A DNA stretch of 64,000 bases from assembly GCA_963760245.1 (NCBI GenBank), contig CAVXCH010000004.1, positions 20,241 through 84,240 of the forward strand. Reading direction: 5' to 3'. Numbering within the stretch: the stretch's first letter is position 1; each line of letters starts with the position of its first letter. A model generated the notes under the pieces. The model ran no database searches. It saw only the letters and a program-made list of their open reading frames with translations, and had not been told where the DNA came from. The DNA comes from an uncultured Chloroflexia bacterium. Lineage in GTDB: Bacteria > Chloroflexota > Anaerolineae > Anaerolineales > Villigracilaceae. The position numbers and the translations under genes were made by a program. Below are positions 9,284 to 45,993 of this stretch, piece after piece.

Positions 9284-10507
9284 TCAGCTCTCCTCTCCCC
9301 TTTTCGCCGGAACCATTGCCTTTGGTTTGAGACGTTCAAAAGCAAAACGCAGCAGCGGCGGCGTGACGAGGGTGGTAAGCAGCACTGCGGCGACAATGGC
9401 AGAGTATGCCCCGCTTTCTAACAAGCCAGCCTTGCTGCCTGCCGCCGCAACGATCAGGGTGACCTCCCCGCGCGCCACCATCCCGGCACCCAACTGGAAT
9501 GATTCGTGACCGGGTAACCCGCCCAACCTTGCGCCTGCTGCGGCACCAAATATTTTTCCGGCAATTGCTGCCAATGCGACTACAAGAATCAGCCAGACAG
9601 CGTTTATATCCAGGGTGTGCAAATCGATTGAAAGGCCAACATTGATAAAGAAAATGGGAACAAAAAGCCCATATGCCAGAGAGGTAATCCCCTGTTCGAT
9701 TTGACCTTTTTCGGGAGTGCGGGCAAACATCAACCCAGCCAGGAAAGCACCGATCAAGGCAGCCATCTGGCCCACCAGCTCTGAGGCCAGGCCGTAAAGG
9801 AGCATGATCACGATGGCAAAAGCAAGCACGCCCTGGCTGATGGACAAGTGCCCCACCCAGCGTACCAGGGACGGAAGAACCCACAGCCCAAAGGCCGTGG
9901 CGGCGACAAGAAAAAGAGCCATGCGACCTGCAAGCAAAACCAGACCCCAGAAACCAGCAGCGCCGGTGGTGATTGCCAGGAAGACCGAGAAGGCCAGGAT
10001 GGAGAGGATATCGTCCACCACGGCAGCGCCGAGCAAGCTCAACCCCACCCGGCTGCGCAGCACGCTCATTTCCATCAACGTGCGCGCCGATATGCTTACG
10101 CTGGTGGCACCCAACGCCAGCCCCAGCAGGAGAGCAGCAGAGCCGGTGAGACCAAAAAGCCGTCCCCCACCCCAGCCCAGCCCGATGGACAGGAGCAGCC
10201 CTCCAACGCTTGCCAGGAGGGATACTCTGCGGTGGCTGGCCAGCTCGCCCAGGTGAAGTTCGAGGCCCGCGATGAACATCAACATCAAAACCCCCAGTTC
10301 GCTGAGGTCAGAAATGGTGACCCCCAGTGTAGTGCTGCTAATGAAAGGCAGACCAAGGATGTTAATCAGAGACGGGCCAAGCACCACCCCGATGAGAAGT
10401 TCCCCCAATACCGAGGGCTGCCCCAGGCGGGTGCTGATGTATCCAGCCGCTTTGGCAGCCAACAAGATGACGACCAGTTCAAAGGCGAGTTGCAGAAAGG
10501 GGGTCAT
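9284..10507 (-). CDS. Cation:proton antiporter (CPA2 / Kef-type Na+/H+ exchanger family)
   Basis: 407 aa with about 12 TM helices. N-terminal LAAKAAGYISTRLGQPSVLGELLIGVVLGPS is typical of Na_H_Exchanger proteins. No fused KTN/RCK domain. Confidence 0.8.
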   Translation of the reverse strand: MTPFLQLAFELVVILLAAKAAGYISTRLGQPSVLGELLIGVVLGPSLINILGLPFISSTTLGVTISDLSELGVLMLMFIAGLELHLGELASHRRVSLLASVGGLLLSIGLGWGGGRLFGLTGSAALLLGLALGATSVSISARTLMEMSVLRSRVGLSLLGAAVVDDILSILAFSVFLAITTGAAGFWGLVLLAGRMALFLVAATAFGLWVLPSLVRWVGHLSISQGVLAFAIVIMLLYGLASELVGQMAALIGAFLAGLMFARTPEKGQIEQGITSLAYGLFVPIFFINVGLSIDLHTLDINAVWLILVVALAAIAGKIFGAAAGARLGGLPGHESFQLGAGMVARGEVTLIVAAAGSKAGLLESGAYSAIVAAVLLTTLVTPPLLRFAFERLKPKAMVPAKRGEES

Positions 10508-23066: not shown

Positions 23067-23645
23067 GTGGTGCAATCCCAAACTGCGGACACTGAAACCG
23101 GCCTGATCGAACAGGCCCAGCACGGTGACCGCAACGCATTCGGTGAACTGGTCCGCCGCCACTATCAGGGAGTTGTCCTGGTGGTCACCCGCATGTGCGG
23201 TGACACCGGACTGGCGGAAGATGCCGCCCAGGAAGCCTTCATGCGGGCCTGGGTGAACCTGCCATCCTTCCAGCCCAAAGGCTGCCTGCGGAACTGGTTA
23301 TACCGGATCGCCATCAACGCCGCACTGGACGTCCTGCGACATAAGCCGGAAGAAACGCTCGATGACGAACAGGCGCTCAAGATGCCAGACCAGGCAGCGG
23401 ACCCGGAAACGGCTTTGATCGAAAAAGAACGAGCAGCCGTGCTCCATCAGGCAGTCAAGTCCCTGCCGGATGCGGCCCGTGCGGTGCTGGTGCTGAGGGA
23501 GTACGGCGGGCTCTCGTACCAGGAAATTGCCGGAACGCTGGATGTGCCGATCGGCACGGTCATGTCCCGCCTGAATTACGCCCGCAACCGGCTGCGGGAA
23601 GTCCTTATCGGTGAAATGGAAATAACGGAGAGCAAATATGCATGA
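23067..23645 (+). CDS. ECF-type RNA polymerase sigma factor
   Basis: Region 2 (AFGELVRRHYQGV..EDAAQEAFMRAW) and region 4 (LREYGGLSYQEIAGTLDVPIGTVMSRLNYAR). GTG start. Confidence 0.9.
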   Translation: MVQSQTADTETGLIEQAQHGDRNAFGELVRRHYQGVVLVVTRMCGDTGLAEDAAQEAFMRAWVNLPSFQPKGCLRNWLYRIAINAALDVLRHKPEETLDDEQALKMPDQAADPETALIEKERAAVLHQAVKSLPDAARAVLVLREYGGLSYQEIAGTLDVPIGTVMSRLNYARNRLREVLIGEMEITESKYA

Positions 23646-35075: not shown

Positions 35076-36623
35076 ATGTTCCTACAAGCACTTTTTTTTA
35101 TCCTTTCGCTCGCCATTACCCTTCTTTTTTTCCTGTATGGATTTAATCATTATTACCTGCTGAACTCAGCTCGAAGATATAAGACCCCGGCCTTGCCGGG
35201 CTTCCCCCACGTTCGCCCGACTGTTTCAATCCAACTGCCTGTTTACAATGAAAGGTATGTCATCCGCAGACTAATCTCCGCCTGTGCCGGCATGGCAGGC
35301 GCATACGGGAGCGACAAGGTGAAGATCATGATCCTTGACGATTCCGACGATGATACCATTATAGAAGTTGACAAGGTTGTGGCGGAATACAGGGAAAAGC
35401 ATTTCATCATAGAGGTCCAGCGACGGGAAAACCGGAGTGGCTTCAAAGCCGGCGCACTGCAGGTTGCGCTCACGGGAACCCAGGAAGAATTCATCGCCAT
35501 TTTCGACGCAGACTTCATCCCACCCGATGATTTTCTTCTGCGCACCATCCCCCATTTTGAACACGATAAACACCTGGGTATCGTCCAAAGCCGCTGGACA
35601 TATCTCAACCGCGATTTCAACCTGCTCACCCAGGCGATCGGCCATGCGATCGACGTCCATTTCCTGGTCGAACAACCGGGAAGATATGCGGCCGGGTGCT
35701 TTCAAAACTTCAATGGCAGCGGAGGAGTGCTCCGCAAGAAAGCCGTTCTTGAAGCCGGTGGTTGGTGTGCTGACACCCTTGCAGAGGACCTGGACCTCAG
35801 CTACCGGATGCAGATGCGCGGGTATGGAATTTTATATTTGAGAGATCTTGCATGCCCGGGGGAAATCCCCCCCACCCTCCCGAGTTTCAAAATGCAGCAG
35901 GGGCGCTGGGCTAACGGATCTTTGAGGAATGCCAGGAAGATCCTTCCCGACCTTCTCCAGGATCACAAAATTGGGCTCAAGCAACGCCTGCAAGCGTTCA
36001 TCCATCTTACGGGATATATCATTCATCCTTTGATGGTTATATCTTTCTTATTAAGTTGTTTCGATGTGTTATTGGGAGTGAATGTTCCACAAGCCAACCA
36101 GGGACACGTATTGAATCCCGTTTCGGGAAACGGTTTCATCCCGGGAATCTTCCACATCCATGCCCTGCAAAACGTAATCTGGGCAATCCTTTTACCTCTG
36201 ATCATCCTCTGCACGCTGGCACCGTGGATCTCCCTGCTCTCCACCTTGAAGATCCAAAACCTTCCCTTGGCGCAAAACCTTGTAAGCCTGCTGGTACTGG
36301 TTCTGCTCAGCCTTGGAATAAGTCTCAGCAACCTGCGAGAAGCTGTCAAAGCCTTGTTCACGAATCGGTCCTGGGAATTTGCCAGGACGCCGAAGTACGC
36401 GGACCTTCAAAATAAGCACGATTGGAAAAAGAAAAAATACCAGATGCCGGTGGACATTATTTGGGTAACAGAGTTGATTTTGGTGATCCTGGGATTATGG
36501 GCGATAGGGACTGCCATCCGGCAAACGAGCTATCCTGTATTACTGATCCTGGTCCCTTTTACCGTCAGCTATGGATTTGTCATGTCGATATCGATCCTGC
36601 AGAGTCGCAAAGCCAAGGCCTGA
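35076..36623 (+). CDS. Processive family-2 glycosyltransferase (CslA / monoglucosyl-diacylglycerol-synthase-like) with C-terminal TM domain
   Basis: LPVYNE, ILDDSDD, FDADF, VQSRW, TLAEDLDLSYR and QQGRWANG motifs. One N-terminal and 4-5 C-terminal TM helices. Confidence 0.8.
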   Translation: MFLQALFFILSLAITLLFFLYGFNHYYLLNSARRYKTPALPGFPHVRPTVSIQLPVYNERYVIRRLISACAGMAGAYGSDKVKIMILDDSDDDTIIEVDKVVAEYREKHFIIEVQRRENRSGFKAGALQVALTGTQEEFIAIFDADFIPPDDFLLRTIPHFEHDKHLGIVQSRWTYLNRDFNLLTQAIGHAIDVHFLVEQPGRYAAGCFQNFNGSGGVLRKKAVLEAGGWCADTLAEDLDLSYRMQMRGYGILYLRDLACPGEIPPTLPSFKMQQGRWANGSLRNARKILPDLLQDHKIGLKQRLQAFIHLTGYIIHPLMVISFLLSCFDVLLGVNVPQANQGHVLNPVSGNGFIPGIFHIHALQNVIWAILLPLIILCTLAPWISLLSTLKIQNLPLAQNLVSLLVLVLLSLGISLSNLREAVKALFTNRSWEFARTPKYADLQNKHDWKKKKYQMPVDIIWVTELILVILGLWAIGTAIRQTSYPVLLILVPFTVSYGFVMSISILQSRKAKA

Positions 36624-36627
36624 AACA

Positions 36628-37932
36628 ATGGCTCAACCTACCGGATCTACATCTAATTTACTATGTCACAAAGGATACCCGAATTCTGATCTGTTTCTGG
36701 TTGCCACCAGCATTATTTTACAGATCATCCTTGCGCTGTTCCTTGGGCATGCTTATGATATGCGGGTTTTCATGGCAACCGGTTATTTGGTGGGCACCGG
36801 TCAGAATCCATACATTGCACAAGACCTGAGCTCAGTTTTTCATAACAGCAGCTTCCAGGGGATCACCACGTTGGGATATTTTCCTCCCTGGGCCATGATT
36901 TTGGGGCTGATATATCTTCTAACTTATCGTGTCATCCCCAACTTTCTCCTTTACAACCTGGCCATCAAGCTCCCGGTCATCGCTACCAACATCTGCCTGG
37001 CTTACCTAGTCCTTTCAATATTACGAAAAATGGGTGTCCGGGAAAAAATCGCACACAGGGCCTGGATATTTCTCCTCTTCAATCCATTCCTCCTTTTGAT
37101 GTCAGCCGCCTGGGGACAATTTGATTCCATCGTGACGTTGCTGTCCCTGTTATCTCTCCTGCTAATCAGCGAAGGAAAGCTTACCGGTCCAGCAATCCTG
37201 CTTGCGCTGGCAATTTCTTTCAAACCCATCGCCCTCCCGATCATTCCGGTGATACTTGTTTTCCTGGCAGGAAAGTCCATCAAACGCACTTTGTATTATT
37301 TAGCCATATTCGCTGCCGGCATGGTTTTATTCTGTGCGGCGCCCTTCGCCCTCTTTGGATGGAGCCCGGCGCCGATCCTTCAGCATTGGGATTTTCATTT
37401 TACAGTAGGAGGTGGCCTGTCGTTCATGACATTTCTGGAGTTCACAGAATGGTCCTATGCACTGCCGGGACAGTTTTGGTTCCTGGGGTGGCTATGGGTG
37501 CCGGCTTTGGGCGTTGCCACATATATTATTGGAAAAGGAGGGGTAAAGGATTTCAATGATCTGATTAAGAAAAGCGCCGCCCTGATCTTGATCTTTTATC
37601 TCTGCCGGGCATGGGTTGCCGAAACAAATGTTGTTTTGCTGCTCCCTTTTGTACTCATCCTGATTTCATCGAAAGGGTTAAATCGGCTTTCCCTCGCCGC
37701 GGTATGGGTCCTGCCGTTGATATTCAGCTTTTTCAATACCTCCCTTTTCCAGCTTTTATTTCCCAGCCTGCCCGGATTAATGGACAGGCTGCTACAATTG
37801 GCAGGTAACTTCTCGGCTGCCCGGTATGACCTGCGGACATTGATCGTGATCATCTGGCTAGTTGCAGGATGGTTGGTCGCGATCGCCTGTCTTAAAAAAA
37901 ATTCGTTAAAGGCAGAAACTATCTCTGCCTGA
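36628..37932 (+). CDS. GT-C-like polytopic membrane protein (DUF2029 / mannosyltransferase-like)
   Basis: About 434 aa with 10 or more TM helices. Early motif LFLGHAYDMRVFMATGYLVGTGQNPY. The ATG lies 5 nt after the GT2 stop. Confidence 0.5.
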   Translation: MAQPTGSTSNLLCHKGYPNSDLFLVATSIILQIILALFLGHAYDMRVFMATGYLVGTGQNPYIAQDLSSVFHNSSFQGITTLGYFPPWAMILGLIYLLTYRVIPNFLLYNLAIKLPVIATNICLAYLVLSILRKMGVREKIAHRAWIFLLFNPFLLLMSAAWGQFDSIVTLLSLLSLLLISEGKLTGPAILLALAISFKPIALPIIPVILVFLAGKSIKRTLYYLAIFAAGMVLFCAAPFALFGWSPAPILQHWDFHFTVGGGLSFMTFLEFTEWSYALPGQFWFLGWLWVPALGVATYIIGKGGVKDFNDLIKKSAALILIFYLCRAWVAETNVVLLLPFVLILISSKGLNRLSLAAVWVLPLIFSFFNTSLFQLLFPSLPGLMDRLLQLAGNFSAARYDLRTLIVIIWLVAGWLVAIACLKKNSLKAETISA

Positions 37933-37964: not shown

Positions 37965-38795
37965 ATGGGACTCAACATTCCGATCATCCCGGGGTTCTCC
38001 CTGAACTTCGGCGATCCCCTCCCCGACCAGAAATATCCGACCGCCCGTTTGCAGAAGGGTTTCATCCTGCTGGACGAAGGCGTGGAACTGACCGAAGAAG
38101 CGGTGGGGTTTGGAGTCCCTGTGGTTAAGCGCGGGCTGCAAACCATATTTCCAGGGGACGTATCGTTGACCTGGCAGAAGGAAGGAACAACCTGGGTTGT
38201 CACGGCGCAATTCAAATTGAATTTGGTCGAAAAAATCACGAGGGGCGGGAACGGAAATGTTGGGAATGGATCGTTTTACGCCTTGAAGGATTTCCTGGCA
38301 GAAGTCATCCGCCGCTTCCCCATCTTCCGCAGACTCCTGACGAACATCTCCAGCTTGTTGAGGCGTATTTTCAACTGGAAGACGAACTACGCGGCGGAAG
38401 GCGCCTTAACGGAAGTCAAGGTGAACTATACCATCGAGGCAGGGACGGGAAAGACGATGGTGGATATCGATTTAAGCGATCTGCCTGCAGATCTTACAGA
38501 AGTGGTGGTGATGAATGAGCAGGGTGCGCACGCTTTCGATCGATACCAGGATACTTCCGGAAACTACTTCCAGGGCGAGGAGGTTGGCTGCTGGGATGAA
38601 GTGGAAGCCGAAGAAGCCTGGTTCGAGAGCAGCGCCCGGCGGGTCGCGTTCGGGCTCGGTAAGGTAAAAGGGGCGCGACTTTTCAGAGGCAGGGAATTGA
38701 TCGGGTCCCGGTTGGCCTGGGCTGGTTTTGGTTATTCCTTCCCGCCTTCCATCCAAAGATTCCAGTATGAATTGAAAATCAAAAGGCTTGCATGA
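37965..38795 (+). CDS. Hypothetical soluble protein (no motif recognised)
   Basis: 276-aa ORF with coding-like composition. ATGA overlap with the next gene (38792-38795). Confidence 0.5.
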   Translation: MGLNIPIIPGFSLNFGDPLPDQKYPTARLQKGFILLDEGVELTEEAVGFGVPVVKRGLQTIFPGDVSLTWQKEGTTWVVTAQFKLNLVEKITRGGNGNVGNGSFYALKDFLAEVIRRFPIFRRLLTNISSLLRRIFNWKTNYAAEGALTEVKVNYTIEAGTGKTMVDIDLSDLPADLTEVVVMNEQGAHAFDRYQDTSGNYFQGEEVGCWDEVEAEEAWFESSARRVAFGLGKVKGARLFRGRELIGSRLAWAGFGYSFPPSIQRFQYELKIKRLA

Positions 38796-40159
38796 CATCC
38801 GTGCTTCTAATCTACCCCTTTTTCGTTCCTCACCGGGACCGGTCGGTTTTCAGGTTCCCTCCATTAGGACTCAGCTACATCGCTGCCAGCTTGCAAAAGG
38901 CCGGTCACGAGGTGCACTTGATCGACTGCACCTTCCTGGGAAGGACCGAAGCCCTGGAAAAAGCGCAGGCGGTGAAGGCTGAGGTGGTGGGCATCTACTG
39001 CATGGTGACCATGGTGGATGAATGCGTTTGGTTTGCAGAGCAACTGCGTCCCCAAAGCCGGCTGCTGGTCGCTGGCGGACCGCTGCCAACCTGCGACCCA
39101 GAACCTTTTTTGAGTAATTTCGACGTGGTGGTGCGCGGCGAGGGGGAACAGACCATGCAGGAACTCCTGCAGGCTCACATGGATGGGTCTGCACTGGAAA
39201 CCATCCCCGGGATAGTATACCGGACTGATCCGGGCTGGCCGGGGAAAGGCAGGCTCGTCTACACCCCCGAACGCAAATTTACGAAAGAGCTGGACCGCAT
39301 CCCCTTCCCCGCCCGCACGCTGCTCCCCAACGAAAGCTACATCCGCCAAGGCAGGAAAAAGTATGGATATTCGATCACCACGGTCATGAGCACACGCGGC
39401 TGTCCGTATCGCTGCGAATTTTGCAGCAACGTGGTCTTCGGCGGCTCCTACCGGGAGCGCTCGCCTGAGAACGTGGTGGACGAGATAGAATCGGCGCTTG
39501 CAATGGGATACGAACGAATTTCTTTCGCGGATGATGTGTTCACGATGAAAAAGGAAAGAGTGGTGGGGGTATGCCGGGAGATCACACGGCGAGGATTGCA
39601 TTTCAACTGGGAATGCCTGGGCCGGGTGGATGCTCTTGATTATCCGACCGCACTCGAGATGAAAGCAGCCGGTTGCTCACGGATCTTCTTCGGGATCGAG
39701 TCCGGCAATGAACAGATGCTCGAGCGCATGAATAAAAAGATATCGCTGAATGAGGCGCGCCGAGCTGTCCATGCTGCTCACCAGGCAGAACTCCAAGTGG
39801 GGGCTTTCTTCATCCTGTGTTACCCCGGGGATACGAACGACACCGTGCTCGAAACCTTGCATTTCGCCACGTCATTACCCCTGGACTACCTGGGACTTAG
39901 TATGCCCTATCCGCTCCCTGGAACGGAACTATATCGAAGGACCAGGGAACGGATCAACCGTCAATGGCATCCGGACGAAAGCCCCTTTGGAAGCCACGTG
40001 CTGATCTTCGACGCGGATTTTTCAGAAACCAAAATGTGGTTCGGGATCATGAAGGGACATGCCCAGTTCGAGATTAAAAAAAGAACCGGGAAGCTGGCGC
40101 CTCTGTTTTTAACCCTCTTTGAAAAACCAACCGATGCGATCTTCAGGCTCTTGAAATAA
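38792..40159 (+). CDS. B12-binding-domain radical SAM protein
   Basis: N-terminal Rossmann-like LLIYPFF..PPLGLSYIAASL..VVGIY. CX3CX2C motif STRGCPYRCEFCSN. Confidence 0.85.
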   Translation: MTSVLLIYPFFVPHRDRSVFRFPPLGLSYIAASLQKAGHEVHLIDCTFLGRTEALEKAQAVKAEVVGIYCMVTMVDECVWFAEQLRPQSRLLVAGGPLPTCDPEPFLSNFDVVVRGEGEQTMQELLQAHMDGSALETIPGIVYRTDPGWPGKGRLVYTPERKFTKELDRIPFPARTLLPNESYIRQGRKKYGYSITTVMSTRGCPYRCEFCSNVVFGGSYRERSPENVVDEIESALAMGYERISFADDVFTMKKERVVGVCREITRRGLHFNWECLGRVDALDYPTALEMKAAGCSRIFFGIESGNEQMLERMNKKISLNEARRAVHAAHQAELQVGAFFILCYPGDTNDTVLETLHFATSLPLDYLGLSMPYPLPGTELYRRTRERINRQWHPDESPFGSHVLIFDADFSETKMWFGIMKGHAQFEIKKRTGKLAPLFLTLFEKPTDAIFRLLK

Positions 40160-40188
40160 ACCTGCGACCTAAATATGGATGAATAAGG

Positions 40189-41484
40189 TTATATTTTCCT
40201 GCCTGCAAATGCCTGCATCGTCTCCCCGATCCTGCGCTGCAGCCAGTTGGGATCGAACTCCGATTCGTAAAGGAAAGTGACCTCGTTCTCCACATTCCAA
40301 TCATTGGTTGTATCCACTTTGCTCACGTGCTCGAACAATTGGGAACCAGGAAGCGGGTAGGGGACATTGAAAGAGATGGAGTCCAGGGGGAGTTCCAGAG
40401 CGAAACGAAAGGTGTCTTCAATGGCAGGAACAGTTTCGCCCGGATAACCGACGATAAAAAAGGCAGCCACTTCGATACCGGCATTATGGAATAATTGTAC
40501 GGCGTGTTTCCCCTCATCCACAGTCGCTTTCTTCTTCATCAACGTGAGAGTATCCTGGTTGCCGGTTTCCAGACCCAGGTAAACCCTACGGCAGCCAGAT
40601 TCCTTCATCAACCTGGTAGTCTCCACATCGATCCCCGTGACACGTGACAGACAGCTCCAGGCCATGTTCTGACCGGCAATGCGGCGGCAGAATTCCCGGA
40701 GGAAAGCAGGATCCAGGGTGAAGTTATCGTCTGCGATCCACAAGCTGTCGTAGCCCAGGCTGCGGATTTGCTGAATCTCTGCGAAAACCGCCTCGAGGTT
40801 TCGGCGCCGAAACCGGTTGCCAAAGACCGGACGGGAGCAAAAATCACAATTGAAGGGGCAGCCAAAGGTCGTGATGATGGAGGCTGTTTTCGAACCATCC
40901 AGCTGTTGCCACACCTTTTGATAAGCCCGATGGTCAAAGTCATCCCGGTAGGGAAGCGGGAAGGTTTCGAGCTCTTTTTCCCTGTAGTGAACAATGGGAT
41001 TTTTTACACATAATTTTTCGCGCTGTATAAAAAGCCCCTCGTATTTATCGAGCGCCAAGTCCATTACTTGCAGACGGGAAAGTTTTCGATCGAACAGGTC
41101 TTTGCAAAACCTGGGAAAACTCAAGTCGGCTTCCCCCCTGAATACAGCATCGAAAGCCTGACCATACTGTTCAGGGTAAAGGGTTGGTAAAGGTCCCCCG
41201 GCGACCAGGATGCAATCGGGAAGGTCGGTCCGTACCATCCCTGCGATCCGGAAGGTGTTCCGGCTCAGGGTCACCATCGAATAAATGCCGACCATATCCG
41301 CCCGGTAGGATCCCAGTTTTTTACGGATGCCCTCGAAGGTATCGAAGGTGCAGTCAAAGATCTTGACTTCGACGCCAAGCCTGTGAAGCTGGGCAGCCAG
41401 GCTGGCCATACCGAGCGGTGGAAACAAAAGTTCGTTGGGGGATTTTGTGCGGAAATAGGGGTAAACCAGGGCAGCCCGTGACAT
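40189..41484 (-). CDS. B12-binding-domain radical SAM protein (paralogue of 38792..40159)
   Basis: ALVYPYF..PPLGMASLAAQL..MVGIYS, TTFGCPFNCDFCSRP, and the shared C-terminal PYPLPGSQLF motif. Convergent with its paralogue, separated by a 29-nt gap. Confidence 0.85.
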   Translation of the reverse strand: MSRAALVYPYFRTKSPNELLFPPLGMASLAAQLHRLGVEVKIFDCTFDTFEGIRKKLGSYRADMVGIYSMVTLSRNTFRIAGMVRTDLPDCILVAGGPLPTLYPEQYGQAFDAVFRGEADLSFPRFCKDLFDRKLSRLQVMDLALDKYEGLFIQREKLCVKNPIVHYREKELETFPLPYRDDFDHRAYQKVWQQLDGSKTASIITTFGCPFNCDFCSRPVFGNRFRRRNLEAVFAEIQQIRSLGYDSLWIADDNFTLDPAFLREFCRRIAGQNMAWSCLSRVTGIDVETTRLMKESGCRRVYLGLETGNQDTLTLMKKKATVDEGKHAVQLFHNAGIEVAAFFIVGYPGETVPAIEDTFRFALELPLDSISFNVPYPLPGSQLFEHVSKVDTTNDWNVENEVTFLYESEFDPNWLQRRIGETMQAFAGRKI

Positions 41485-41525
41485 GTCGTTTATTTTCTCC
41501 GATTACCAAATAAAGGATACTTAAC

Positions 41526-41993
41526 TTATATACCGATAATGAATGCTTCCGTATAAACGATCACTCCGAGCAACGTGGCAGCCATATACAGAGCATAGGC
41601 TGCCCTCATAAATGGCTTGTACTTCTTGAAGCGCAAAGCCCGTGGGACCAGTTCATTTCCCCTCAGGACCACGAATATTCCAAAGAGAAGACCGATTGCG
41701 CCAACGATCGCATGGACTGTCGTGACCGCATAATCACCCTGCAAAAGTTTGCCGGGTATCCCCGGAAGGATGTGGAGGACAAACGACCTGATCATCACCA
41801 CCAGAACAACAATGGCATTCAGGCTGGCAGCGGAGGTTTGAACCCAACGGTGGGCTTCGAAATGGTTGTGGCGCGCCAACTGCCATCCGATGGTGATCAA
41901 TACGGCAGTCAGCAATATCAGGATGAGGGTCAGATCGGAAAGGGAAGTGGCGTGAGTCCCGAGAAACCCAGGTCCGTTGAGGAAATTTATCAT
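41526..41993 (-). CDS. DUF420-like 4-TM membrane protein
   Basis: 155 aa with four TM helices and conserved His residues (HNHFEAHRW). The family assignment is from memory. Confidence 0.5.
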   Translation of the reverse strand: MINFLNGPGFLGTHATSLSDLTLILILLTAVLITIGWQLARHNHFEAHRWVQTSAASLNAIVVLVVMIRSFVLHILPGIPGKLLQGDYAVTTVHAIVGAIGLLFGIFVVLRGNELVPRALRFKKYKPFMRAAYALYMAATLLGVIVYTEAFIIGI

Positions 41994-42214: not shown

Positions 42215-42243
42215 TTGACTTGAACCCGACTAAGTGATAATAT
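42215..42243 (+). promoter_or_regulatory. Sigma-70-type promoter
   Basis: TTGACT (42215-20), a 17-nt spacer, then TAATAT (42238-43), about 80 nt upstream of the peroxiredoxin-like ATG. Confidence 0.5.
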
Positions 42244-42323
42244 TTTTAATATGTTTGCAAAAAATTAAGTGTCATCCGGATAATTCGAGAAGCTCCGGTT
42301 TATGGTGGTTCAAGGAGGTAACG

Positions 42324-42785
42324 ATGGCTGATAAGGAATTGGAGGTCGGATCGCCTGTCCCAGATTTCACACTCCCAGCCAATACGGGCGGTGAGATCAA
42401 ATTTTCCGATTATCGCGGCAAAAAAATTGTCCTGTTCTTCGTGCGAGAGTACGAGTGACTGCAGTGCCGATCGCATGTCGCCCAGTTGGGGCGCTTGAAT
42501 GATGAGTTTGTCAAGGCAGGCGTGCAGGTTCTGGTGATCATCGGCGAACCTTTGGAGCGGGCGCGCAAGTATGCCGAGTCTCTCAAGGCACCATTTCCCG
42601 TCCTGGCTGATCCCGAACGCACGATCTATCACCGGTTTGAACTTACAAAGAATTTCATAGGGATTCAACATACCGCCTCTGTCATCGTGGACCCAAACGG
42701 TGTGATCACTTACATCAAGCGAGCCTTGAACCCGATGACCTGGCTGCAGGAAAGCAAGGAATTGGTCCGGGTTATTTTGTCATAA
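42324..42785 (+). CDS. Peroxiredoxin-like (PRX_like2 / AhpC-TSA) thioredoxin-fold protein with in-frame TGA; selenocysteine candidate (UxxC)
   Basis: RBS AAGGAGG. MADKELEVGSPVPDFTLPANTGGEIKFSDYRGKKIVLFFVREYE-TGA-LQCRSHVAQLGRLNDEFVKAGVQVLVI... ORFs 42234..42458 and 42486..42785 are in the same frame (offset 252 nt), so this is a stop codon and not a frameshift. Confidence 0.7.
42477..42494 (+). promoter_or_regulatory. Candidate bacterial SECIS hairpin
   Basis: G(U)CGCCC-AGUUG-GGGCGC: a 6-bp GC stem with a bulged U and a GU in the loop. It starts 19 nt after the UGA at 42456-42458. Confidence 0.4.
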
Positions 42786-42874: not shown

Positions 42875-44050
42875 ATGGAAAACTTCAAATATCTGATCAT
42901 CGGCGGCGGGATGACCGCCGCGGCTGCCATGCGTGGTATCCGGGAGCTTGACCAGCAGGGATCGATCGGGGTGGTGGGCCTTGAATCGGACCCTCCCTAC
43001 AAACGCCCTCCTCTCAGCAAGGGGTTGTGGAAGGGCAAGCCCTTGGACAGCATCTGGTTAAAGACCGAAGACCTGCAGGCGGAGCTTCGCCTGGGTCGAA
43101 AAATTGTTTCGCTAGACCCGGGAAGTCTCACCGTCCAGGATGAACAGGGGACGAGCTACAAGGGTGAAAAGATCCTGCTGGCAACCGGGGGCACTCCCCG
43201 CCGGCTGCCGTTCGGCGGCGACCAAATCATCTACTACCGTACCCTGGCCGATTACAAGCGGCTGGCGGAGCTCAGCCAGGGCAACATGACATTTGCCGTG
43301 ATCGGTGGAGGCTTCATCGGGTCGGAAATTACGGCTGCCCTGGCAATGAACGGCAGGCAAGTGACCATGCTGTTCCCCGAGGACGGCATCGGTGCAGCGA
43401 TCTACCCGCACGACCTAGCCCTTTTCTTAAACGATTATTTTGTTAAAAAGGGCGTTTCAGTTTGGCCAGGGGAGGTATTGAGCGGAGCCAAAGCGAGCCA
43501 GGGGAAGGTGGCGCTGCAGACAAAAAATGGCAGGGAGTTGATCGTTGACGCGGTCATCGCGGGGATCGGAATCCAGCCGAATGTGGAACCGGCCAAATCG
43601 GCCGGCTTACAAGTCGGTAATGGCATCCTCGTTGACAGGACCCTTGCCACCAGTTATCCCGGCATCTTTGCCGCCGGAGACGCGGCCGAGTTTTTCAACC
43701 CAGCCCTCAACAAGCGCATGCGCGTCGAGCACGAAGACAATGCCAATACTATGGGACGCCAGGCTGGACGCAACATGGCAGGCGCCTCCGAACTTTACGA
43801 TCACCTTTCTTATTTTTACTCGGACATTTTCGAGCTTGGATATGAGGCGGTCGGTGAGCTTGACCCCCGCCAAGAAACCTTTGTGGATTGGAAAGAGCCA
43901 TTTAATAAAGGTGTGGTCTATTACATGGCAGGTGGCAAGGTGCGGGGCGTGCTGCTTTGGAATGTTTGGGACACAGTACCGGCAGCCCGAGCCCTGATCG
44001 CCGAGACAGGTCCCTTCACGGCTGCCGATCTGAAAAACCGCCTGGGATAA
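42875..44050 (+). CDS. FAD-dependent pyridine nucleotide-disulfide oxidoreductase (ferredoxin reductase / AIF-like)
   Basis: YLIIGGGMTAAAA (FAD GxGxxA), FAVIGGGFIGSE (NAD) and IFAAGDAA motifs. Confidence 0.85.
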   Translation: MENFKYLIIGGGMTAAAAMRGIRELDQQGSIGVVGLESDPPYKRPPLSKGLWKGKPLDSIWLKTEDLQAELRLGRKIVSLDPGSLTVQDEQGTSYKGEKILLATGGTPRRLPFGGDQIIYYRTLADYKRLAELSQGNMTFAVIGGGFIGSEITAALAMNGRQVTMLFPEDGIGAAIYPHDLALFLNDYFVKKGVSVWPGEVLSGAKASQGKVALQTKNGRELIVDAVIAGIGIQPNVEPAKSAGLQVGNGILVDRTLATSYPGIFAAGDAAEFFNPALNKRMRVEHEDNANTMGRQAGRNMAGASELYDHLSYFYSDIFELGYEAVGELDPRQETFVDWKEPFNKGVVYYMAGGKVRGVLLWNVWDTVPAARALIAETGPFTAADLKNRLG

Positions 44051-44234
44051 TTACATTGTGAAATGGGGGTCATGGTTAACCGGTCCGTGTCCGTCTCGGT
44101 TGAGATAATCGTCGACCGGAGGCTCCCATCATATTATTTATTTCTCCATCCGAGCTGCCCGGATTGGAAGACTGCCATATAATGTAACGGACGAGTGTTT
44201 AATCATCGGATAAGTATAATTGGAGTGAAGCGAT

Positions 44235-44594
44235 ATGGTTGATTTAGCCCAATTGCATTGCACCAAGATCGAAGCAAATACCCTCCCACTAAATAATAAG
44301 GAAATCGGTAACCTTGCAGCAGACCTGCCCGGTTGGCATGTTTTTGAAAAAGACGGTGAACCGCGACTGGAAGCATTGTTCAAATTCGAGAATTTTCGCA
44401 AGGCAATGGATTTCACCCTCCAGGTTGCACAGATTTCCAATGAAGAGGACCATCATCCCGCCATCCTGACCGAATGGGGAAAGGTAACTGTCACCTGGTG
44501 GACCCATAGAATCAAAGGATTGCACCAGAACGACTTCATCATGGCTGCGAAAACATCGAAAATCTATGGAGATCAATATGGAACCTATAAATAA
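44235..44594 (+). CDS. Pterin-4-alpha-carbinolamine dehydratase
   Basis: EEDHHPAILTEWGKVTVTWWTHRIKGLHQNDFIMA is the hallmark PCD/DCoH motif. Confidence 0.85.
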   Translation: MVDLAQLHCTKIEANTLPLNNKEIGNLAADLPGWHVFEKDGEPRLEALFKFENFRKAMDFTLQVAQISNEEDHHPAILTEWGKVTVTWWTHRIKGLHQNDFIMAAKTSKIYGDQYGTYK

Positions 44595-45225
44595 ATACGA
44601 TGATGACCTGAATGACTTGGTCGATCTGACAAAACGGGAAATCTCAGAGGAGCAAAAGCGCAAGTTCGAGGGCTATGCGGCAGAAATCCTCACCTGTCTT
44701 GGGATGGATTTGAAAACCCCGAGTACTTCCGACACCCCGCGCCGTTTCATCCAGGCGCTGATCGATGCTACCAAAGGGTACGATGGGGATCCCAAGCTGC
44801 TAAAAACCTTCCGTACAGAATGCCGCGGGGAACCTGACTGCCGTCTAAGCCAGGTGATTGAGGGCCCGATCCATTTCTTTTCATTTTGCGAGCATCATGT
44901 ATTTCCATTTTACGGCGAGGCTTACGTGGGTTACATTGCAGACGAGAATATCATCGGCATTTCCAAGCTGACTCGGCTCGTGCGCCTGTTCGCCCAGCGG
45001 TTTGCCGTGCAGGAACGGATCGGGCAGCAGGTAGCAGATACCCTCGAGGCGGTGCTCATGCCGCATGGGGTGGCTGTTTACCTGCAGGCCCATCACCTGT
45101 GCGTCGAGATGCGCGGAGTGAGGGAACTGGCGCCGATCACGCGCACGTTGGTCTGGCGCGGTTATTATGCCGATGAAGCCTCCCTCAGAGATGAATTCTT
45201 AACCAGTTGTGGTTTCAAGAGATGA
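44578..45225 (+). CDS. folE: GTP cyclohydrolase I
   Basis: FFSFCEHHVFPFYGEAYVGYI and ..QERIGQQVAD. Alternative ATG at 44566; the ATG at 44578 has GGAG 5 nt upstream. Confidence 0.9.
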   Translation: MEPINKYDDDLNDLVDLTKREISEEQKRKFEGYAAEILTCLGMDLKTPSTSDTPRRFIQALIDATKGYDGDPKLLKTFRTECRGEPDCRLSQVIEGPIHFFSFCEHHVFPFYGEAYVGYIADENIIGISKLTRLVRLFAQRFAVQERIGQQVADTLEAVLMPHGVAVYLQAHHLCVEMRGVRELAPITRTLVWRGYYADEASLRDEFLTSCGFKR

Positions 45226-45267
45226 ACATTTCCCAGGAAGGAAGGGACCAGGGATAACCTGAAAGCC

Positions 45268-45993
45268 ATGTCACTCGAAGGAAAAACAGTCCTGATCACC
45301 GGCGCGGCCCTGCGGATCGGGCGCTCGCTGGCACTGGCGGTGGCCCAGGCGGGCGGGGATGTCATTTTGCACTTCGGCAAATCCCGCAAGGAAGCTGAAA
45401 GCCTCCAGACGGAGATTGAAGTTATCGGCCGGAAAGCTTTCATCCTGCAAGCCGACCTGGCGGACCCCGCACAGGCGGCTGCTTTGGTCGACAATGCCAG
45501 GGAATACTCTCCGCTATTCGCCCTGGTCAACAACGCTTCCATATTCGAACCAGCCGGGTGGGCGGATACCAGCCTGGACCAGTGGAACCGCACCCTTGCG
45601 GTCAACCTGACGGCACCCTTCCTGCTCAGCCAGGCTTTCGCCCGTTCTCTGGAACCAGACGGAACGGGGCGCATCGTCAACCTGATGGATTGGCGCGCCC
45701 TCCACCCCAGGCCGGATCATTTGGCGTACATGATCAGCAATTCCGGCCTGGCCGCCCTTACCCATTCCCTCGCCGTAGCCCTGGCGCCGCGCATTACAGT
45801 CAACGGGCTGGCGCTGGGAGCCGTCCTGCCTCCCGGCGACGGGTCACCCGCCAATGTCAACCTTGAGAAGGTACCCGCCCGGAGGTGGGCTAAACTTGAG
45901 GAAGTAGGGCAGGCTTTGATCTTCCTCCTGGACGGCCCGGCTTATATCACGGGTGATGTGCTCCACGTGGACGGCGGCAGGCACCTGGTGTAG
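45268..45993 (+). CDS. Short-chain dehydrogenase/reductase, pteridine reductase (FolM-like) by context
   Basis: TGAALRIGRSLA (TGxxxRIG is typical of pteridine reductases). YxxxK region YMISNSG (atypical). Sits inside the pterin cluster. Confidence 0.65.
   Translation: MSLEGKTVLITGAALRIGRSLALAVAQAGGDVILHFGKSRKEAESLQTEIEVIGRKAFILQADLADPAQAAALVDNAREYSPLFALVNNASIFEPAGWADTSLDQWNRTLAVNLTAPFLLSQAFARSLEPDGTGRIVNLMDWRALHPRPDHLAYMISNSGLAALTHSLAVALAPRITVNGLALGAVLPPGDGSPANVNLEKVPARRWAKLEEVGQALIFLLDGPAYITGDVLHVDGGRHLV

Follow-up and report, generated by a model that had tools for sequence, protein, structure and literature searches.

A probable Prx-like selenoprotein gene with a conserved SECIS-like hairpin in Anaerolineae

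A single reading frame interrupted by one in-frame TGA

The window, which is the whole 64-kb stretch of DNA that was analysed, contains a frame that opens with an ATG at 42324 and continues to a TAA stop codon, its sole interruption being a TGA at codon 45. The features of the locus are as follows.

42215..42243, + strand: sigma-70-like -35/-10 match TTGACT-N17-TAATAT with a TG before the -10 (9 of 12 positions; a pattern only)
42313..42318, + strand: Shine-Dalgarno sequence AGGAGG, 5 nt before the ATG, read directly
42324..42785, + strand: coding sequence of the predicted Prx-like selenoprotein, 153 residues including Sec45 (ATG 42324, TAA 42783-42785)
42456..42458, + strand: UGA codon 45, predicted Sec, which opens U-L-Q-C (TGA in 50/50 related loci; Cys in homologues)
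42465..42467, + strand: TGC codon 48, Cys48, aligned to the peroxidatic Cys of BCP/PrxQ and the proposed partner of Sec45
42474..42497, + strand: SECIS-like hairpin, identified from folding, covariation and constrained codon choice

The two open reading frame pieces, 42234..42458 and 42486..42785, share one frame and belong to a single gene. An earlier note on this DNA had joined them into a 153-codon gene for a thioredoxin-fold protein with the TGA as codon 45, a model borne out by the match of the product to the Pfam AhpC-TSA profile from end to end: with the TGA read as Cys, residues 8-131 cover the whole domain (PF00578, profile positions 1-124 of 124; E=1e-27; 96.9 bits against a cut-off of 26), and Redoxin and AhpC-TSA_2 are matched in addition. 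Full-length homologues begin at the same Met as the model starting at 42324. Around the interrupted codon the product reads VLFFVREYE-U-LQ-C-RSHVAQLGRL; Cys48 is the only Cys among the 153 residues, and the N-terminus, read directly from the sequence, has no signal-peptide-like stretch. The best explanation of the sequence data is that 42324-42785 encodes a predicted cytoplasmic, single-domain, thioredoxin-fold Prx-like oxidoreductase.

Neighbouring genes and promoter-like sequence

A scan with one genome per species yielded 50 related loci, nearly all of them labelled as Anaerolineae or Chloroflexota MAGs, whose proteins are 51-92% identical to that of the window gene. Among these loci no neighbour of the prx-like gene is universal: a gene for a DUF420 membrane protein is adjacent in 10, and one for a Luciferase-domain (PF17648) protein adjoins it in another 15. 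In locus L017, only the prx-like gene (10001-10444) is inverted relative to a conserved block made up of DUF420, at +421..+885 from the TGA, and two B12-binding radical-SAM genes; this block corresponds to window positions 38792-41993. Because of this inversion and the lack of a universal neighbour, the prx-like gene appears to behave as an independent unit. The two radical-SAM genes of the window, 38792-40159 (+) and 40189-41484 (-), are convergent paralogs and lie beside glycosyltransferase genes (35076-37932).

The earlier note had credited the gene with its own strong promoter and with a redox partner encoded immediately downstream. The TTGACT-N17-TAATAT motif is indeed present, and 42215-42243 is possibly a promoter, compatible with an independent unit; the epithet "strong" finds no support in so partial a match to the consensus. 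The downstream gene (42875-44050) encodes a protein with Pyr_redox_2 and AIF-type C-terminal domains, which among NCBIfam models resembles ferredoxin-NAD+ reductases most closely. Lacking any cysteine, this FAD protein cannot be a dithiol disulfide reductase. Only in the seven closest loci is its gene next to the prx-like gene; in L018 it is found 4-5 kb upstream of the prx-like gene, still together with pterin genes. The two genes thus show no conserved pairing, and on synteny and the absence of Cys the proposed role of a disulfide-reductase-type partner was rejected.

The FAD oxidoreductase gene is the first of a four-gene block (42875-45993) that continues with genes for pterin-4a-carbinolamine dehydratase (44235-44594), GTP cyclohydrolase I (44566-45225, overlapping the preceding gene by 29 nt), and an SDR (45268-45993). 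The same block occurs in L018 at -5.0 to -2.0 kb from its TGA. This arrangement suggests a pterin-related cluster that is independent of the selenoprotein.

Conservation of the TGA and its alignment with cysteine

The TGA is present at the homologous codon in all 50 related loci, 49 of which were checked directly; the remaining one, L047, begins at the TGA itself. The gene halves on either side are both conserved in one frame across the loci. Elsewhere in the window TGA serves as an ordinary stop codon: it terminates 21 of the 53 long open reading frames, including that of GTP cyclohydrolase I, which matches its Pfam profile to the end. The genetic code is therefore standard, and reassignment of TGA is excluded.

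The earlier note had placed the TGA at the first Cys of a CxxC motif and had suggested a comparison with Cys-containing homologues. When this check was run, the homologues aligned as anticipated. Three of them (P0033, P0050, and P0114; ~54-61% identity) carry TGC or TGT at the Sec site; in the DNA of the Cys forms the codon is TGC in L052 and L054 and TGT in L053, and the motifs at the site include YSCAQC, YNCMQC, and FNCAPC. In the wider family, sampled as 50%-identity representatives, CxxC is common (P0121, P0123, P0126, and P0128, for example), and the CxxC clusters are interleaved with clusters truncated exactly after the Sec site. The alignment of TGA with Cys across homologues is the standard signature of predicted Sec/Cys pairing.

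Two of the related loci carry labels from other phyla. L036 is labelled as Acidobacteria Bin_42R, and the 72 nt of DNA around its site are identical to those of L034/L035 (CFX5/CFX11); L051 is labelled as Gammaproteobacteria DTUPRO9 and is likewise identical over the 72 nt to L030/L031 (UBA2395/CFX2). In the region of the DsbA-like gene described below, L030, L031, and L051 give translations that match equally well across 348 residues. L036 and L051 are probably mis-binned contigs and not evidence of the gene in other phyla.

Truncated and mistranslated database copies

Relatives sought among about 5.8 billion proteins fall into two kinds. Those of the first kind are ~153 residues long and all come from short contigs; the ones fetched (P0001-P0011 and P0034; 152-161 residues) have W at the site. 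In L001:101-562, where the DNA was read, the W codon is a TGA translated with genetic code 4, and the W-bearing short metagenome contigs have evidently been translated with that code. Proteins of the second kind comprise 87-114 residues, are labelled "peroxiredoxin," and start either right after the site ("MQCR..." or "LQCR...", some of them 108 aa long) or at the next possible start. All public copies inspected either are cut short (87-114 aa) or have Trp by mistranslation. The truncated copies from NCBI-sourced assemblies probably arise because no NCBIfam selenoprotein cut-off is reached. As a consequence, annotations of Anaerolineae, a group abundant in soils, sediments, and wastewater sludge, show neither the active-site half of the protein nor its presumed selenium dependence.

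A covarying hairpin downstream of the UGA

The GC-rich hairpin that the earlier note had described at 42477-42494, with a bulged U and a GU-containing loop, was found as placed. Its core is a stem of 5 bp, all G+C (42479-42483/42489-42493), closed by the apical loop AGUUG (42484-42488), which lies 25 nt from the UGA. Below the core, G42477 pairs with C42494, U42478 is bulged, and further pairs form between 42474-75 and 42496-97. As a 25-mer the element folds with -10.1 kcal/mol (z=-2.1; 7 of 200 shuffles fold as well), and its folding energy is ordinary in a 71-nt context (z=+0.35). The significance of the hairpin derives from the comparison with relatives and not from its folding energy.

This comparison used a gap-free alignment of the 72 nt around the site in 46 distinct sequences. 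RNAalifold predicts a single consensus element, the 5-bp stem, in which 4 of the 5 pairs show double compensatory changes. In a version extended to 7 pairs, 84.8% of the cells are paired, 5 pairs have changed on both sides, and the covariation score is 0.199 as against 0.080 in shuffles, a value reached by 0 of 500 shuffles. Registers slid by 1-3 columns are 35-64% paired and have hardly any double changes; the outer two pairs switch between two registers across the relatives. In one example of compensation, an Ala-to-Gly change (GCC to GGC) is matched by a synonymous change of the opposite Gly codon from GGG to GGC or GGU, and in L048/49 the stem is GUUUCGC/GCGAAAC with an unchanged loop. Covariation at a distance typical of SECIS elements bears out the SECIS likeness that the earlier note had seen.

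Codon choice provides a further view of the same element. The Leu codon within the hairpin is TTG in 44 of 46 sequences, compared with 20% of the Leu codons in window genes; the Ala codon is GCC in 38/38; and Gln +9, inside the hairpin, is CAG in 45/46, as against 31 CAG to 15 CAA for Gln +2, outside it. The codons for Arg +4 and His +6, also outside the hairpin, vary freely. Only the codons of the hairpin are held back in their synonymous changes, a constraint that acts at the level of the RNA. Part of the hairpin's conservation is nevertheless protein-driven, the short element overlapping the conserved peptide HVAQLGR.

Of 49 hairpins with five or more pairs, of which four or more are G-C, and the loop AGTTG that occur on both strands of 1.7 Mb, 45 are located at the Sec site. 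The only other AGTTG-loop hairpin in the window (23158-23188, +; 10 pairs) was rejected as a chance occurrence, the TGAs upstream of it being out of frame with the open reading frame 23067-23645. Features invariant among the Sec forms are altered in each of the Cys-form genes (n=3, all that are available): a core pair is broken in two of them, and the third has the loop AACUC, encoded by CAA-CTC instead of CAG-TTG yet specifying the same VAQLGR peptide. An Rfam scan of 42300-42650 at E<=10 matched no family.

Selenocysteine machinery and a second candidate selenoprotein

ARAGORN detected no tRNA gene in the 64-kb window and no tRNA-Sec in 40 related loci. Likewise, tblastn searches with approximate E. 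coli SelA/SelB/SelD queries gave no match in the window, and in ~0.8 Mb of DNA from related loci only one weak GTPase match, in L043.

Ten of the related loci contain a second gene with an in-frame TGA, located 2.7-3.8 kb upstream of the prx-like gene (TGA gene at L025:6674, L026:4434, L030/L031/L051:7404, L032:5909, L033:231, and L034/L036:6321, and also present in L035). Its protein is DsbA-like (PF01323, E=2.4e-40) with the motif SDYV-U-PWC, and a Cys form of the gene occurs at L029:7848. The hairpin that follows its TGA, GUCGGCC-AGGGUGU-GGUCGC, has a stem in common with some of the prx-like variants, such as that of L039 (GUCGGCC-AGUUG-GGUCGA). No second selenoprotein was found in the close-clade loci L002-L008. 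When further conserved in-frame TGAs were sought in a blind scan, most hits proved to be off-frame artefacts, and the DsbA-like gene alone survived filtering; candidates in L008, L028, and L041 were rejected, their TGAs being ordinary stop codons.

DsbA-like UxxC proteins are a recognised family of selenoproteins (PMC13188914). The use of Sec in Chloroflexi has been on record since 2006 (PMC1794560), and the type strain Anaerolinea thermophila UNI-1 is listed as SelD+, SelA+, and SelB+ with 4 selenoproteins (Peng et al. 2016; PMC5029168 Tables S1/S2). The DsbA-like UxxC gene and the A. thermophila listing are indirect lines of support for a Sec-decoding trait in the window's group.

Interpretation of the in-frame TGA

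That the earlier note was right to take the TGA for Sec in a UxxC Prx-like protein is argued by its occurrence in 50/50 loci of this gene, by the Cys-containing homologues aligned at the site, by the covarying hairpin, and by the use of TGA as a normal stop elsewhere in the window. Based on these comparative data, it is highly probable that UGA45 is read as selenocysteine, helped by the conserved RNA hairpin, and that the gene encodes a genuine selenoprotein. A different decoding event would be the insertion of a standard amino acid (Trp, Cys, Gly, or Arg) at UGA45 by near-cognate or suppressor decoding or a local change of the code, with the hairpin as a generic stimulator of read-through. 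Such a scheme would accommodate the intact 153-aa proteins with W at the site that code-4 gene callers produce, and also the failure to see Sec machinery in the window and related loci. It is difficult to reconcile with the many long window frames that end in TGA, among them that of full-length GTP cyclohydrolase I, which speaks against reassignment; moreover, the site is aligned to the redox Cys of CxxC homologues, which only Sec replaces functionally, the loop and spacing fit the SECIS model, and relatives contain a second UxxC/CxxC gene. Decoding as a standard amino acid is accordingly judged improbable.

Slightly less credence is given to the TGA as a true stop, either in a split or decaying gene or between a 44-residue peptide and a separate protein of 99-108 residues starting at TTG 42486. 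Annotation pipelines do call short C-terminal proteins of 87-108 aa, and the TTG start is present, but the two pieces together make up one thioredoxin-fold domain, and the C-terminal piece by itself would be deprived of strands beta1-beta3 and of the first redox residue. The N-terminal 44 codons are kept in frame down to 51% identity, a strong RBS is found only at 42324, and a stop held at one codon in 50/50 genomes is not decay. Finally, although a single substitution would suffice for the TGA to be a sequencing or assembly error in place of TGC or TGT, the same codon recurs in 50 independent assemblies, produced in different studies with different sequencing technologies, which makes an error scarcely conceivable.

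Fold, active site, and proposed mechanism

The closest solved sequence is the BCP/PrxQ protein 5enu (E=7.7e-15). In an AF2 model (pLDDT 86.6) of P0033, a Cys homologue, the first Cys caps the N-terminus of helix 46-57, and Foldseek identified BCP/PrxQ structures as the closest folds to this model (TM 0.81-0.85), followed by the CxxC oxidoreductase ResA. In the alignment with 5enu, P-x3-T-x2-C corresponds to R41-x3-U45-x2-C48, and on this basis Cys48 would be at the peroxidatic position and Sec would replace the catalytic Thr. The Prx signature of Pro, Thr, Cys, and Arg is only partly preserved: Cys48 is kept, Pro is replaced by Arg41, Thr by Sec45, and Arg by His116 (42669-42671). His at the catalytic-Arg position is shared with the nearest relatives (IQHTAS), whereas most family members, including Cys forms, have Arg there (IQRTAS).

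A simple model would suggest that the hairpin, with its G+C core and its AGUUG loop 25 nt past the UGA, causes Sec to be inserted instead of translation being terminated, presumably through SelB binding to the hairpin and incorporation of Se at UGA45. Judging from the P0033 model, Sec45 would cap the N-terminus of helix alpha-1, as in thioredoxins, with Cys48 one turn later. The two residues may form a U-x-x-C center that cycles between a selenol/thiol and a selenenylsulfide. Peroxides or disulfides would be the likely substrates, with re-reduction presumably by a thioredoxin-type system encoded elsewhere.

Comparison with known selenoproteins, peroxiredoxins, and SECIS elements

The Prx-like thiol:disulfide oxidoreductase family is defined by pfam00578 together with UxxC or UxxU (PMC9312934). 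Its representative is WP_010940744.1 from Geobacter, it is described as "predicted with high confidence" (PMC13188914, PMC9312934), and its counterpart in the GOS survey is "Prx-like 1" (PMC2398784). The window protein, like this family, combines PF00578 with UxxC, and in both cases function is predicted; by the rule of domain and motif, the window gene is a member of this known UxxC kind, as far as sequence can assign it. For selenoprotein biology overall, this is an expected kind of finding that leaves the picture unchanged. Unlike the family at large, the group around the window gene is limited in the present sampling to Chloroflexota, mostly Anaerolineae, and has its own signature, FFVRE-x2-U-x-Q-C-R-x-H-V-A-Q-L-G-R. 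Several further Prx-like subfamilies are named in selenoproteome reviews (PMC9312934, PMC13188914, PMC2398784).

A search of the window protein against NCBIfam matched no model above its cut-off. The best match was to the SelL-related model (NF040769; E=3e-19), but with 69.3 bits against a cut-off of 120 the protein is not a member, and SelL has UxxU where the window protein has UxxC. PRX_like2/AhpC-TSA_2 (PF13911) is matched above its cut-off (36.2 vs 27 bits). SelL and PRX_like2 both carry a thioredoxin-like dithiol motif at the same structural place as that of the window protein. BCP/PrxQ proteins (PDB 5enu and 3drn) are the closest solved sequences and folds, with PxxxTxxC in the place of RxxxUxxC. 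PrxU (NF040737) is also an AhpC/TSA-fold selenoprotein, but the window protein reaches only 44.6 bits against a cut-off of 270; in PrxU, Sec is the peroxidatic residue (TxxU), whereas the Sec of the window protein is three residues earlier (UxxC).

These differences raise the possibility, which we regard as doubtful, of a distinct Chloroflexota-specific Prx lineage in which Sec has taken the place of the catalytic Thr (RxxxUxxC), the peroxidatic Cys and, in most members, the catalytic Arg are retained, and Sec is essentially fixed (50/50 sampled). If such a lineage exists, its chemistry would be undescribed for Prx, with Sec either attacking the peroxide or resolving, one helical turn before the peroxidatic Cys. 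Its lineage-specific SECIS element, CGCCC-AGUUG-GGGCG, whose stem is common to the DsbA-like selenoprotein, would then define a SelB recognition code of Anaerolineae.

Bacterial SECIS elements, as described by the bSECISearch model and the E. coli fdhF prototype, are likewise hairpins within the open reading frame immediately 3' of the UGA. In the published model, position 1 or 2 of a small apical loop is a G, frequently with G or U after it, and the UGA and the loop are 16-37 nt apart (PMC13188914). The loop A-G-U-U-G, with G at position 2 and a distance of 25 nt, agrees with it; as in the bacterial consensus, the loop is small, has G then U at positions 2-3, and is accompanied by a U bulged below the core. 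The AGUUG loop and the stem, unlike the prototype, are specific to the lineage of the window family. More generally, the 46 distinct sequences provide a covariation-supported SECIS model for a phylum without characterised SECIS elements, and this model could be used for finding more Chloroflexota selenoproteins.
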